Assembly (NCBI GenBank): GCA_016703535.1
Contig: JADJBV010000001.1
Coordinates: forward strand, 6,382,270 to 6,446,269
Origin: Deltaproteobacteria bacterium
Lineage (GTDB): Bacteria > Myxococcota > Kuafuiibacteriia > Kuafuiibacteriales > Kuafuiibacteriaceae
Direction: 5' to 3'
DNA length: 64,000 nt
Position numbers and translations under genes: made by a program
The notes under the pieces: model-generated
Seen by the model: only the letters and a program-made list of their open reading frames with translations
What the model was told of the DNA's origin: nothing
Database searches by the model: none
In this document: positions 32,671-35,096 of the stretch, in pieces
Position numbering within the stretch: position 1 is the first letter of the stretch
Layout: every line of letters starts with the position of its first letter

Positions 32671-33726
32671 CTAAAGCGGACAGGTCGTCCCGCACCGAGA
32701 GCAGCCGGCCGTCTGCTTTCCGTCTACACAGGTTCGGTGTTCTGCTCGCCACTGCACAGCGGCCTCATCGGCCGCCGTCTCGTCTAGATTGTGCAGGTCA
32801 ATAATGTGGGCAGCGACCCGGGCCGCGCGAACCGCCTCCAGCGTGGATTCGAGGCTCGGGATGCCTCCTGTATGCTCCTCGCGCGTCACGGCCGCAAGCA
32901 CGTGGGCTGCTCCGTGAACACCCATCAGAGTGGCGCCGATAGCGGCCGACACATGGTCCTGTCCGTCCGCCGCGTCGGTAGGAATGGGGCCCAAGGGCAT
33001 GACTGGGAAGCCAGCAGGAGCTAGGATCGAAGCCACTCTCAGGATGTCCCGCGGTCGAGCATGACCAGGTGACTCAACAATCACGCTTGTTCCGCTTCGC
33101 ACGAGCTGTGAAGCGAGGTCCAACTGGGCCGCGATCTCTCCTAGTTGCGCTTCATCCAGCGAGTCAAAGATGTTCGCCGAGCGAAAGGACGCCCCGAGGC
33201 TCAGCGTCACGCCCCGGCGAGCTGCCTCCTCTGCCAGCTTCGGCATGATGTCCTGGTAAGCGTTGCCTCCGTCTCCGCGAAGTAGGAGGTCGTTGATGAC
33301 CAATCCGCCCCCTCGGGAAGTCCACGGAACACGTCGCCGACGCGCTAGGCGAACCAGCTCACGAGTCGGGGTCGGATGAATCGTCAGGAGGCCGGCACCT
33401 CGTTCCATCTGCTCGATGGCTCTATTGAGTAAGGCAGAACGATCAATCTGGCCCGATGTCGAGACAGCGGAATACACGGGCAACGTCGCGGCGACAAAGC
33501 CATATGAAACTATGCACTCCAGGAGCGGTTCGTTCGACGCAACAATCGATAGATCGGATACGATATCGGGACCGACTTCCATCTGTGCAAGCGCGTCAAT
33601 TTTTGCTCGCTGGGATCCGAAGTCGCGAATGTGGCTAGAGCCGACCAGGGCCATCACTGACGTTCGAATCCCAGGACCTACCGCGACGCTCGGGAGCGCT
33701 CGCCGCCCTAGCAAGGCAACAGTCAT
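32671..33726 (-). CDS. Short ThiC-family (HMP-P synthase-like) radical enzyme paralog, 351 aa
   Basis: ThiC blocks: VPIYQA-like LPVYSA, TIHaG-like LLTIHPT, SRGG, ESPGH (VIVESPGHARP), LGPIPTDAADGQDHVSAAIGA. C-terminal CSRCGTTC (CX2CX3C). ATGA overlap with the ThsA-like stop at 33723-33726. Confidence 0.7.
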   Translation of the reverse strand: MTVALLGRRALPSVAVGPGIRTSVMALVGSSHIRDFGSQRAKIDALAQMEVGPDIVSDLSIVASNEPLLECIVSYGFVAATLPVYSAVSTSGQIDRSALLNRAIEQMERGAGLLTIHPTPTRELVRLARRRRVPWTSRGGGLVINDLLLRGDGGNAYQDIMPKLAEEAARRGVTLSLGASFRSANIFDSLDEAQLGEIAAQLDLASQLVRSGTSVIVESPGHARPRDILRVASILAPAGFPVMPLGPIPTDAADGQDHVSAAIGATLMGVHGAAHVLAAVTREEHTGGIPSLESTLEAVRAARVAAHIIDLHNLDETAADEAAVQWRAEHRTCVDGKQTAGCSRCGTTCPL

Positions 33727-35096
33727 TTGAGGCTCGCTTCCACGCACCGAACCACGTCGGCAGCGCTGACACGGCCACTTCTCGCCTTTTCTAAGTAGGC
33801 TGGATCGATTTTCTGGAGCAGCCCGGCTACGCCCGGCTCATCGAGTTGCAGCGCGGCCAGACCCTTGCGTTGGATTGGCACAGGAACGATTTGGCACCGA
33901 TGGGCGCGCGCAACCTCCAGTTCCGCGGCCGTGCCCATGCCTCCATCAAACACAACCATCGTCCTGGCGGCGGCAAAGAGGCCTCCACGGTATCGCTTGA
34001 GATCGTCGAGGAGTGACCTGTCGTTTGAAAATGCAGGCCTTATTGCATAAGGATTCGGAAAAATCCTAATGCGCTGACGCAGGTCGGTTTGTCTTCGAAG
34101 GCAAGCATCGCCGAAAGCGTTGACGGCATGGCGGCCAATACCCTCGGACTGGCCGTCCAGAAGCACAATCGCCGGATCGATTTCGGAGAGCTTTGCTCCC
34201 ACCAGTGCCGCAAGGTCAGTCGCACGACGAGCAGCCTTATGCCCACCACTTACGAACACGGCCCGGTCCCGAGCTCGGAGGGCTAGATTGTCGAATACGT
34301 GCTGGATTTCATCGTATCCTTGGACGATCGCACAACGAATTCCAACCCGCATGAGATCCTCGGTCCAGAGTGCCTGGCGCTTCGCGTCTTCAGCACTGCT
34401 GGCTACCTTAAGCAGCATAAAATGTTCGCGAGTCGCGCGTTTGGCCAACCTCCTTGCTTGAACCAGCGCGGTTGAGATGCTGGAATCCCGATAGCCATAG
34501 CCAGCAAACAGGAAAGTTTTGTGGAGCAAGTCGTGCTGGAGGCGCTGCACAAAACTGGGCCGACGAGCCGCAAATTCCTCATAGTCGTCGGTCGTGATGA
34601 TGAGGTCGTTGGGCGAGCTTCGCTCGATGCATCCATGCACCTTCAGTATTTCAAAGTCATCAGCGAGGACATCCTGCGTAAAGTCTTGATCGTCAATCCG
34701 CACGACAACCCTCCGGTGTGCCATCGAGTCCTCAAGAAGACGATCGAAATTTGTGGTCCAGACGGTATCAATCGGAGTGAGCCGCAGGGCGGCGTGGTAG
34801 GAGTTTGGAAGAAGTCCGCGATTTAGCTTCGCTCTAAATGCCGCGACCAGGGGACCACGATTGCCCTTGTCGGCATTTACCAAATGCTGTGCGATCAACG
34901 GTAAGTCGTCGGTCTCCTTCAGGTCCAACCCGATCCGCCTCGCGTGCGGCTTCAATAGACCAAGCCAACTTGGCGCATTCGACTTGGCGGATATCCCGGA
35001 TCCCAAAAAGTACGCGCCCACACCGGCCGCGATTGCCTGAGCCATCCCATCAACCACGTAGGAGAGATCGACTCCAACCGACTTTGGTTCAGCCAT
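33723..35096 (-). CDS. ThsA-like protein: N-terminal SIR2-like (SIR2_2) domain + C-terminal SLOG/LOG-like domain, 457 aa
   Basis: SIR2_2 motifs FLGSGISAKSNAPSWLGLL, TTNFDRLLE, ILKVHGCIER. C-terminus AVFVSGGHKA...VVFDGGMGTAAELEVA (LOG PGGxGTxxE-type motif). ATG 35094-35096 with GAGGGAG upstream. Confidence 0.7.
   Translation of the reverse strand: MAEPKSVGVDLSYVVDGMAQAIAAGVGAYFLGSGISAKSNAPSWLGLLKPHARRIGLDLKETDDLPLIAQHLVNADKGNRGPLVAAFRAKLNRGLLPNSYHAALRLTPIDTVWTTNFDRLLEDSMAHRRVVVRIDDQDFTQDVLADDFEILKVHGCIERSSPNDLIITTDDYEEFAARRPSFVQRLQHDLLHKTFLFAGYGYRDSSISTALVQARRLAKRATREHFMLLKVASSAEDAKRQALWTEDLMRVGIRCAIVQGYDEIQHVFDNLALRARDRAVFVSGGHKAARRATDLAALVGAKLSEIDPAIVLLDGQSEGIGRHAVNAFGDACLRRQTDLRQRIRIFPNPYAIRPAFSNDRSLLDDLKRYRGGLFAAARTMVVFDGGMGTAAELEVARAHRCQIVPVPIQRKGLAALQLDEPGVAGLLQKIDPAYLEKARSGRVSAADVVRCVEASLK

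Follow-up and report, generated by a model that had tools for sequence, protein, structure and literature searches.

A 64,000-nucleotide stretch of the genome of a Deltaproteobacteria bacterium from the phylum Myxococcota (assembly GCA_016703535.1, contig JADJBV010000001.1), hereafter the window, carries a two-gene operon in which a ThsA-like SIR2-SLOG gene is directly followed by a short gene of the ThiC radical S-adenosylmethionine (SAM) family. This pair is a real, widespread and rare unit and, as far as the literature searched shows, an undescribed one. No work was found with a relevant link of ThiC or 'phosphomethylpyrimidine' to Thoeris, SLOG or anti-phage defense (for ThsA and STALD the coverage comprised the best 25 of 207 ranked matches), and the combination of 'ThiC' with 'SIR2' returned unrelated work only. 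In the Thoeris types described in the literature consulted, a TIR enzyme makes a signal derived from nicotinamide adenine dinucleotide (NAD), and we tentatively favor the view that the ThiC-like enzyme occupies the place of that signal maker. The defining features of the pair, and the island in which it is set, are the following.

33723..35096, minus strand: ThsA-like SIR2-SLOG gene, operon position 1, 457 amino acids (Pfam, PADLOC and PDB profile matches)
32671..33726, minus strand: short ThiC-family radical-SAM-type gene, operon position 2, 351 amino acids, TAG stop (Pfam PF01964)
33723..33726, minus strand: ATGA start/stop overlap of the ThsA-like and ThiC-like genes (direct sequence reading)
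30000..38500: low-GC island with the pair and two further defense-type gene pairs, given as context only (GC profile)

The ATGA overlap between the two genes had been pointed out in a preliminary description of the window and is read directly from the sequence, the ThiC-like ATG (33726-33724) overlapping the ThsA-like TGA (33725-33723). The ThsA-like gene starts at the ATG at 35096, which is preceded by an AGGGAG Shine-Dalgarno-like motif approximately 12 nucleotides upstream; an alternative ATG at 35132 would supply 12 extra residues that are absent from homologues.

The preliminary description had made co-occurrence in other genomes a test of its idea, and there the two genes are found together almost universally, whichever of them is used as the seed. 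A scan seeded with the ThiC-like protein, covering one genome per prokaryotic species, yielded 42 loci, and wherever upstream sequence is available (33 of 33 genome loci of the family), the gene immediately before the ThiC-like one is ThsA-like and on the same strand. This order of ThsA-like and ThiC-like genes is also seen in the decayed locus L042. For the reverse test, metagenome contigs were scanned with a ThsA-like profile, which gave 80 loci at 29-48% identity, 65 of them with at least 1 kb of downstream sequence; a short ThiC-like gene stands right after the ThsA-like gene in 59 of these 65. Among the six exceptions, L136, L141 and L142 are canonical Thoeris loci with TIR_2 or ThsB_TIR neighbors and L140 groups with them in the tree, while L088 and L121 are nested inside the ThiC-linked clade, a position that suggests secondary loss of the ThiC-like gene. 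The 4-nucleotide start/stop overlap is available in 18 other loci, and the rest have overlaps of 1-32 nucleotides or gaps of 4-11 nucleotides, with the pseudogenized L029 and the L034 locus, disrupted by an insertion sequence (IS), as the exceptions.

Phylogeny and sequence divergence follow the same division. In the ThsA tree, a branch with 100% SH-aLRT support splits TIR-linked ThsA from a 76-member clade that includes all 70 ThiC-linked proteins. Across 25 loci, pairwise identity in one protein is correlated with that in the other at r = 0.85, a value reached by none of 2000 permutations, indicating that the ThsA-like and ThiC-like proteins travel together. A third member of the unit (DUF1848, methyltransferase, PDC-M19 or other) was ruled out, as the neighbors in the window recur in none of the 42 loci, among which no further gene family is common to more than 8. 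The link to the DUF1848 and methyltransferase genes that the preliminary description had entertained is accordingly dropped, for these are conserved beside the pair in no other locus.

Two observations concern ThsA-like genes with other surroundings. At L088:182-3974 a lone ThsA-like gene sits between thyX and rlmB-sigH, and in L121 and L117 a PRiA4_ORF3-like small gene lies downstream in place of the ThiC-like gene. These three loci point to loss of the ThiC-like gene or else to alternative partners.

The ThiC-like protein: family and active site

The ThiC-like protein matches the Pfam model ThiC_Rad_SAM (PF01964) with an E-value of 1.9e-44 across model positions 50-369 of 420, and is thus without the first ~50 model positions of the ThiC core. 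Its scores lie below the cut-offs of the established families: 153.5 bits against NF009895 (cut-off 410) and 135 bits against TIGR00190 (cut-off 460), both NCBIfam ThiC models, and 118 bits against the BzaB model TIGR04386 (cut-off 700), to which a genuine BzaB from a carrier genome scores 769 bits. The ThiC core motifs quoted in the preliminary description, LPVYSA, LLTIHPT, SRGG, VIVESPGHARP, LGPIPTDAADGQDHVSAAIGA and CSRCGTTC, are all present in the 351-residue protein. The CX2CX3C spacing that had been singled out as distinguishing, however, is shared by bona fide short-type ThiC and by BzaA/BzaB (L051-L053, L056) and was rejected as a family signature. The term 'truncated' likewise proved misleading, as the protein belongs to a full, strongly conserved short subfamily (mean column identity 56%) and yields a confident AlphaFold2 model (predicted local distance difference test, pLDDT, 95.3; predicted template modeling score, pTM, 0.92). 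The best PDB match of this model is the cluster-bound Arabidopsis ThiC 4S27 (template modeling score, TM, 0.88; 27% identity), with the C-terminal cluster loop included in the match. The closest relatives of the protein form at least 450 clusters of ~330-390 amino acids and, where named, are called 'phosphomethylpyrimidine synthase ThiC'. No PADLOC-DB v2 family matched the ThiC-like protein or the one sister-clade homologue tested.

In a maximum-likelihood tree that took in ThiC and BzaA/BzaB and included no BzaF sequence, a branch with support values of 99/98 isolates the ThsA-linked short family. Its sister is another short family, found in Bacteroidales, and both are set off from ThiC and BzaA/B by a long branch of ~2 changes per site. 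This placement, outside the thiamin and benzimidazole clades, agrees with the earlier view of the protein as a paralog, and the scores and tree position together rule out a BzaF or BzaAB lower-ligand synthase. The window genome has a normal full-length ThiC on another contig (629 bits) and five other carrier genomes also have a full-length copy, such that the ThiC-like protein is never the sole ThiC copy in the six; one carrier genome additionally has a BzaA-like/BzaB tandem. An ordinary or decaying thiC is ruled out by the strong conservation, the model with a pLDDT of 95 and this second-copy status. The ThiC-like gene has no thiamin gene context around it, and no cobamide genes were seen nearby. 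Riboswitches for thiamin pyrophosphate (TPP), the purine intermediate ZTP and tetrahydrofolate (THF) were absent near the pair in the window and in eight other loci, although a TPP riboswitch lies within the scanned flank of just one of six true thiC loci (Desulforamulus putei) and the riboswitch contrast is therefore weak.

The pattern of retained and replaced residues was assessed by mapping the functional residues of AtThiC and CcThiC structures and mutants (PMC4389238 and PMC11117688) onto an alignment of 32 family members, 4 sister-family members, 6 true ThiC and BzaA/B. Invariant in all 32 members are the SAM contacts G230, L259, R343, R386 and E489 (G29, L59, R138, R182 and E284 in the window protein), the second-metal ligands H426 and H490 (H222 and H285), the contact to the ribose 2'-OH, E422 (E218), and the 5'-phosphate anchor composed of Y286, H322, S342 and G344 (Y85, H117, S137 and G139). 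The three cluster cysteines (window C342, C345 and C349) are equally invariant (32/32). The following positions are replaced.

N228, which binds the ribose 3'-OH in ThiC: Leu in the ThiC-like family
D383, which protonates imidazole N3: Ala or Thr
Y449, which stacks on the C5 amino group: Met
C474 (Cc), the hydrogen-atom relay: Ala, Ser or Thr
M572, one face of the SAM adenine sandwich: Arg

At the first four positions the replacement extends to 32 of 32 ThiC-like members, while the N, D, Y and C are kept in all six true ThiC. In ThiC mutants, D383A yields no HMP-P (the hydroxymethylpyrimidine phosphate product of ThiC) and C474S stalls at an intermediate (PMC11117688); with both residues replaced, the ThiC-like protein cannot be an HMP-P synthase. 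The family further has a fourth invariant cysteine (C333), lacks 20 residues ahead of the cluster loop and carries CPL as its C-terminal residues. As judged from the alignment, the radical-generating machinery and phosphate anchor are intact and the head-group pocket is rebuilt, becoming larger and more hydrophobic. With the cluster, metal, SAM and phosphate residues kept and the aminoimidazole-reading residues lost, the ThiC-like protein is probably an active radical enzyme that acts on a different phosphoribosyl-type substrate or releases a different product.

The ThsA-like protein and the search for a TIR partner

The upstream protein is readily recognized as a relative of ThsA. It matches Pfam SIR2_2 with an E-value of 1.4e-24, the match of its SLOG domain to STALD being weak and sub-threshold, and residues 14-417 match the PADLOC ThsA1 model PDLC00407 with an E-value of 5e-66. 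The solved ThsA structures 7UXT, 6LHX, 8BTO and 8WC0 match with E-values of 1e-43 to 1e-34, those of 7UXT and 6LHX being 1e-43 to 1e-38, and a profile of the ThsA-like family raises the PDB ThsA match to 1e-75. The SIR2 catalytic residues Asn116 (in TTNFD) and His154 (in KVHG), which align to N112 and H152 of BcThsA, are invariant in 26 of 26 family members.

The SLOG domain is conserved in a more selective manner. In BcThsA, 3' cyclic ADP-ribose (3'cADPR) is bound by G289, S290, L326, Q359, R371, K388, G399 and E403 (Manik et al. preprint). By sequence alignment, the ThsA-like SLOG keeps equivalents of G289/S290 (a GS motif, with Gly at the S290 equivalent in the window protein), R371 (R370), G399 (G388) and E403 (E392). 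A GG.GT motif is likewise present. The equivalent of the adenine-stacking L326 is a variable polar position in the DGQSxG motif peculiar to the family, FPNPYA stands in the Q359 region, and 7 residues are missing from the loop expected by position to carry K388; H286, Q316, S317, N348 and Y350 are new invariant residues of the family. The preliminary description had relied on a ligand pocket in this domain, and on the alignment its ribose-phosphate-binding core is indeed kept, with the adenine or base side remodeled. As the adenine-stacking residues of the 3'cADPR site are changed, the ligand is probably a different one, and the pocket still looks fit for a ribose-phosphate ligand, probably not 3'cADPR.

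That the partner is not a TIR protein, as first described, is borne out at the level of the genome: neither TIR_2 nor ThsB_TIR found a match across the whole 9.76-Mb assembly (91% complete). No TIR gene lies beside the pair in eight other Pfam-annotated loci, nor is one among the gene families recurring across the 42 genome loci. The approach used for this search did recover the TIR genes beside canonical ThsA in L136 and L141.

Genomic surroundings and a sister family

Carriers of the pair are found in at least seven phyla, comprising Myxococcota, Planctomycetota, Actinomycetota, Pseudomonadota (Alpha- and Betaproteobacteria), Bacillota, Acidobacteriota and Bacteroidota. Within the phylum of the window, the pair is present in 3 of 401 sampled genomes, and in none of the 19 from the window's own family. 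Six matches labeled as phage proved to be ordinary ThiC at 26-30% identity. The neighborhoods of six loci are listed here.

L045 (Bradyrhizobium): type ISP and type I restriction-modification, PLD-helicase, resolvases
L048 (Methylicorpusculum): type I restriction-modification, SLFN/AlbA protein, PIN-RHH, integrases
L146 (Myxococcus): NACHT NTPase, HNH protein
L147: relaxase, ParA, DNA methylase, PRTase-CE, ORC/CDC6-like protein, Mu transposase
L148: type I restriction-modification, another SIR2 protein
L149: HipA, GmrSD, integrase

The pair occurs mostly among restriction-modification, toxin-antitoxin and mobile-element genes, and it looks like an accessory, defense-type element. Several copies are in decay: at L034:5133-10783 two opposite-strand genes of ~440-450 amino acids, probably IS transposases, split both the pair and the ThiC-like gene; L038:8031-8558 and L039 retain just the C-terminal 175 residues of the ThiC-like protein; and the copies in L003, L026, L029 and L042 have frameshifts or stops. 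Downstream of the pair in L003, a Planctomycetota metagenome-assembled genome, are three copies of the Rfam Acido-Lenti-1 small RNA motif (10556-10602, 13478-13524 and 13568-13614).

In the window, the pair lies in an island (~30-38.5 kb) with a GC content of 0.56-0.64, compared with ~0.67 in the flanks, together with two other gene pairs.

35217-36050, minus strand: PDC-M19B, 277 amino acids (PADLOC 361 bits)
36057-37304, minus strand: PDC-M19A, 415 amino acids, C-terminal DUF488 (PADLOC 332 bits)
30134-31222, plus strand: SAM-methyltransferase-like gene (weak Methyltransf_34 match)
31198-32142, plus strand: DUF1848 gene (Pfam 297 bits; PADLOC accessory model RTasDUF1848 146 bits)

The PDC-M19B and PDC-M19A genes, a PADLOC candidate system, are 6 nucleotides apart and directly upstream of the ThsA-like gene; since they do not accompany the pair in other genomes, they are a separate neighboring system. 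The methyltransferase and DUF1848 genes overlap by 25 nucleotides and form a two-gene unit convergent with the ThiC-like gene, possibly an accessory for DNA modification or defense. Small open reading frames after the DUF1848 gene (32142-32423 and 32378-32674) returned no matches, and those tested at 28.5-30 kb and 37.2-42.2 kb returned no Pfam match. A promoter and terminator scan of 32000-37600 gave nothing exceeding shuffled expectation. Just outside the island, at 24759-28059 on the minus strand, are genes for a multihaem cytochrome c (503 amino acids) and a 463-residue HD/AAA_33 kinase-like protein.

The Bacteroidales sister family, which includes Phocaeicola massiliensis and many gut metagenome contigs, has no ThsA-like neighbor and is paired with an unrelated protein. 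The sister pairs are located as follows.

L036:6639-8872
L037:7959-10204
L040:7914-10126
L041
L150:4946-7296

In this family the enzyme gene comes first, and the partner, of 375-435 amino acids, overlaps it by 4 nucleotides in Phocaeicola massiliensis. The AlphaFold2 model of the partner (pLDDT 85) has a soluble domain rich in beta structure and, C-terminal to it, three long hydrophobic helices. The partner has no Pfam match above threshold, the three examples tested have no PADLOC match, and the fold has no PDB match above a TM of 0.3; a resemblance to ligand-gated channels was weak and was set aside as not meaningful. The sister pairs sit amid IS elements, restriction-modification genes and AAA_21 ATPases, and in L040 a complete QatABCD-like set (KAP NTPase, a 265-residue protein, QueC-like and TatD; 3362-7950) is directly upstream, with the TatD and ThiC-like genes overlapping by 37 nucleotides. 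The sister pair looks like a second undescribed two-gene system.

Interpretation and comparison with known systems

Our favored proposal, about which doubt still slightly outweighs belief, is that the pair is a self-contained, horizontally mobile Thoeris-type operon, with the ThiC-like enzyme in place of ThsB and its product binding the SLOG domain to switch on the NADase. Phage infection, or a related metabolic upset, would trigger the ThiC-like enzyme, which would produce a small phosphoribosyl-derived molecule; the SLOG pocket would bind that molecule and the SIR2 NADase would be switched on; NAD+ would then drop and the infection would abort. We infer the enzyme activity, the product, SLOG binding and phage protection from sequence comparison, structural models and genomic context. 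The main reason for preferring signal making over contact between the proteins is that one enzyme family is joined to two unrelated effector-like partners, as in Thoeris, CBASS and Pycsar. The interpretation in the preliminary description is partly supported, the synthesis of a SLOG ligand by the ThiC-like enzyme being the step that we infer. A more specific and rather unlikely version is that the radical enzyme makes a second messenger from a purine-pathway ribotide, either aminoimidazole ribotide (AIR) or a larger one such as aminoimidazole carboxamide ribotide (AICAR, or ZMP), this messenger being read by either a NADase under SLOG control or a membrane effector; the link to ThyA, DHFR and ThyX described below would then reflect monitoring of, or buffering against, a disturbance of thymidylate (dTMP) or folate during infection.

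Several points weigh against the proposal of a Thoeris-type operon. The two proteins could act as a complex, the diffusible product and its binding to SLOG being putative. The extra cysteine C333 could fully ligate the cluster, and the M572 to Arg change would alter the SAM adenine sandwich, which makes radical-SAM activity less than certain. Two ThsA-like genes of the ThiC-linked clade (L088 and L121) persist without a ThiC-like gene, and the family was not found on 72,556 PLSDB plasmids, in GenBank phage records or in IMG/VR contigs. Furthermore, a thymidylate synthase adjoins the pair in 24 loci (10 genome and 14 metagenome), a link for which the defense model does not account, and the site in Bacillota is a housekeeping block of the form gltX-cysE-cysS-mrnC-[thy]-[pair]-rlmB-sigH. 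The arrangements of the thymidylate synthase genes are varied.

ThyA upstream, same strand, mostly with DHFR: L003, L008, L009, L012, L016, L026, L029, L069, L072-L075, L080, L084, L128
Non-homologous ThyX upstream: L007, L021, L064, L065, L088
ThyA-DHFR convergent downstream: L022
ThyA divergent upstream: L083
ThyA upstream and divergent DHFR: L092, L094

In Bacillota the pair-adjacent thymidylate synthase is the sole one in the genome and, given the shared housekeeping site, those cases may stem from one insertion. Both Planctomycetota genomes have a ThyX elsewhere, such that the pair-adjacent ThyA-DHFR is a second thymidylate synthase, and there ThyA-DHFR and the pair look like a four-gene cassette. 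The window genome's own ThyA is ~6 Mb away from the pair. Across families of Bacillota (L008, L009, L012, L016, L026 and L029), ThyA shares 80-87% identity with its Syntrophomonas wolfei (L009) counterpart, far more than do the flanking CysS (48-67%) and RlmB (44-59%); the thyA-folA-pair block could move as a cassette, or ThyA could merely be highly conserved. This linkage leaves room for a metabolic reading, and it may offer a clue to the trigger or the substrate. As a speculation, AICAR, a folate-stress alarmone that corresponds to AIR plus a 4-carboxamide, could fit the enlarged ThiC-like pocket; no supporting ZTP or THF riboswitch was found near the pair in the window and the eight other loci.

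The reading closest to these concerns is that the pair performs, or serves to repair, a reaction connected with dTMP, folate or NAD(P) metabolism, with the SIR2-SLOG protein processing a nucleotide and the ThiC-like protein rearranging a ribotide, and without a role in immunity. Neighboring thymidylate synthase genes that come in several orientations and from at least two phyla, the second thymidylate synthase of the Planctomycetota cassette, the Bacillota site in the gltX-cysS-mrnC...rlmB-sigH region and the failure to find the pair on plasmids or phages would all suit such a role. We nevertheless regard it as improbable, because the pair occurs in under 1% of the genomes sampled from the phylum, is missing from all 19 of the window's own family, is patchy across phyla and frequently decayed, and in most loci, the window included, has no nearby thymidylate synthase and lies instead in islands of restriction-modification, toxin-antitoxin or integrase genes; the missing TPP, ZTP and THF riboswitches also speak against it. 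A different possibility retains immunity and dispenses with the messenger: the ThiC-like protein would bind the ThsA-like protein and hold it off or on, relaying infection in response either to a phage protein or to the condition of its own cofactor (SAM level, Fe-S integrity or redox). Overlapping genes favor co-translation and complex formation, the two proteins closely co-evolve, and SAM chemistry could be altered or lost, given the additional invariant Cys333 and the Arg in place of Met572. Such a contact sensor or brake seems unlikely to us, as the invariance of all twelve SAM, metal and phosphate contacts in 32 of 32 members would hardly be expected unless the protein acts catalytically on a phosphorylated small molecule, the conserved core of the SLOG pocket implies that a ligand is probably bound, and an enzyme of the sister family joined to an unrelated membrane partner suits a diffusible signal better.

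The enzyme could instead be the weapon itself, making an antiviral nucleotide or ribotide analogue or draining a pool such as that of AIR, with the SIR2-SLOG protein as sensor, regulator or second effector. Viperins are a precedent for radical-SAM enzymes as direct antiviral effectors, a conserved catalytic apparatus with a changed substrate pocket fits such a role, and gene order is not fixed, the ThsA-like gene coming first here and the enzyme first in the sister family. This reading appears distinctly improbable: the NADase catalytic pair is intact in the ThsA-like protein, whose architecture is in full that of a proven effector, the sister membrane partner looks like an effector and not a sensor, and two effectors without a sensor leave the trigger unexplained.

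If the proposal of a Thoeris-type operon is true, a ThiC-type radical enzyme would provide a chemically different route to immune messengers and constitute a third kind of signal maker, and the ThiC-family fold would gain a function outside cofactor biosynthesis. The unit is small (two genes, ~2.4 kb) and has natural variants in many phyla, including human-gut metagenome loci. Its remodeled SLOG pocket, set beside the solved 3'cADPR-bound ThsA structure, offers a view of how SLOG sensors change ligand, and, should the linkage to thymidylate synthase prove functional, abortive infection would be connected with nucleotide or folate stress. With no ThiC-like model in PADLOC-DB v2 and the name ThiC used in the sources, the system would be overlooked by current tools.

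Compared with ThiC itself, the HMP-P synthase that forms the thiamin pyrimidine from AIR, the ThiC-like protein shares the TIM-barrel fold, the cysteine triad, the two metal-binding histidines, the phosphate anchor and the SAM contacts, with the exception of M572. It differs in the missing N-terminal positions and 20-residue stretch, the replaced AIR residues and the sub-cut-off score. Like BzaF and BzaA-BzaB, the 5-hydroxybenzimidazole synthases of the cobamide pathway, it is a ThiC paralog whose product chemistry is probably changed, and BzaB also has Leu at N228; unlike BzaA/B, it has lost D383 and C474, which these enzymes keep, and lies outside the group of ThiC and Bza proteins. The recruitment of a radical-SAM or nucleotide-biosynthesis fold by an accessory island system recalls prokaryotic viperins and QatC, although these are different protein families and viperins act alone as effectors.

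The logic of one enzyme family with interchangeable, tightly coupled, effector-like partners in defense contexts is shared with type II Thoeris, CBASS and Pycsar. In CBASS and Pycsar, nucleotidyltransferases or cyclases make the signal, whereas the ThiC-like enzyme is neither a TIR protein, a nucleotidyltransferase nor a cyclase, and its signal molecule is putative. Type I Thoeris is matched in the ThsA-like SIR2-SLOG architecture, the catalytic residues, the two-gene operon, the defense-island setting and, on the alignment, the SLOG core. In contrast to type I Thoeris, the pair has a ThiC-family partner and no TIR gene in operon or genome, its ThsA-like proteins form a clade apart from TIR-linked ThsA, and the adenine-stacking residues are changed. 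Thus, although it lacks the TIR protein by which Thoeris is defined, the pair resembles Thoeris at its effector end.

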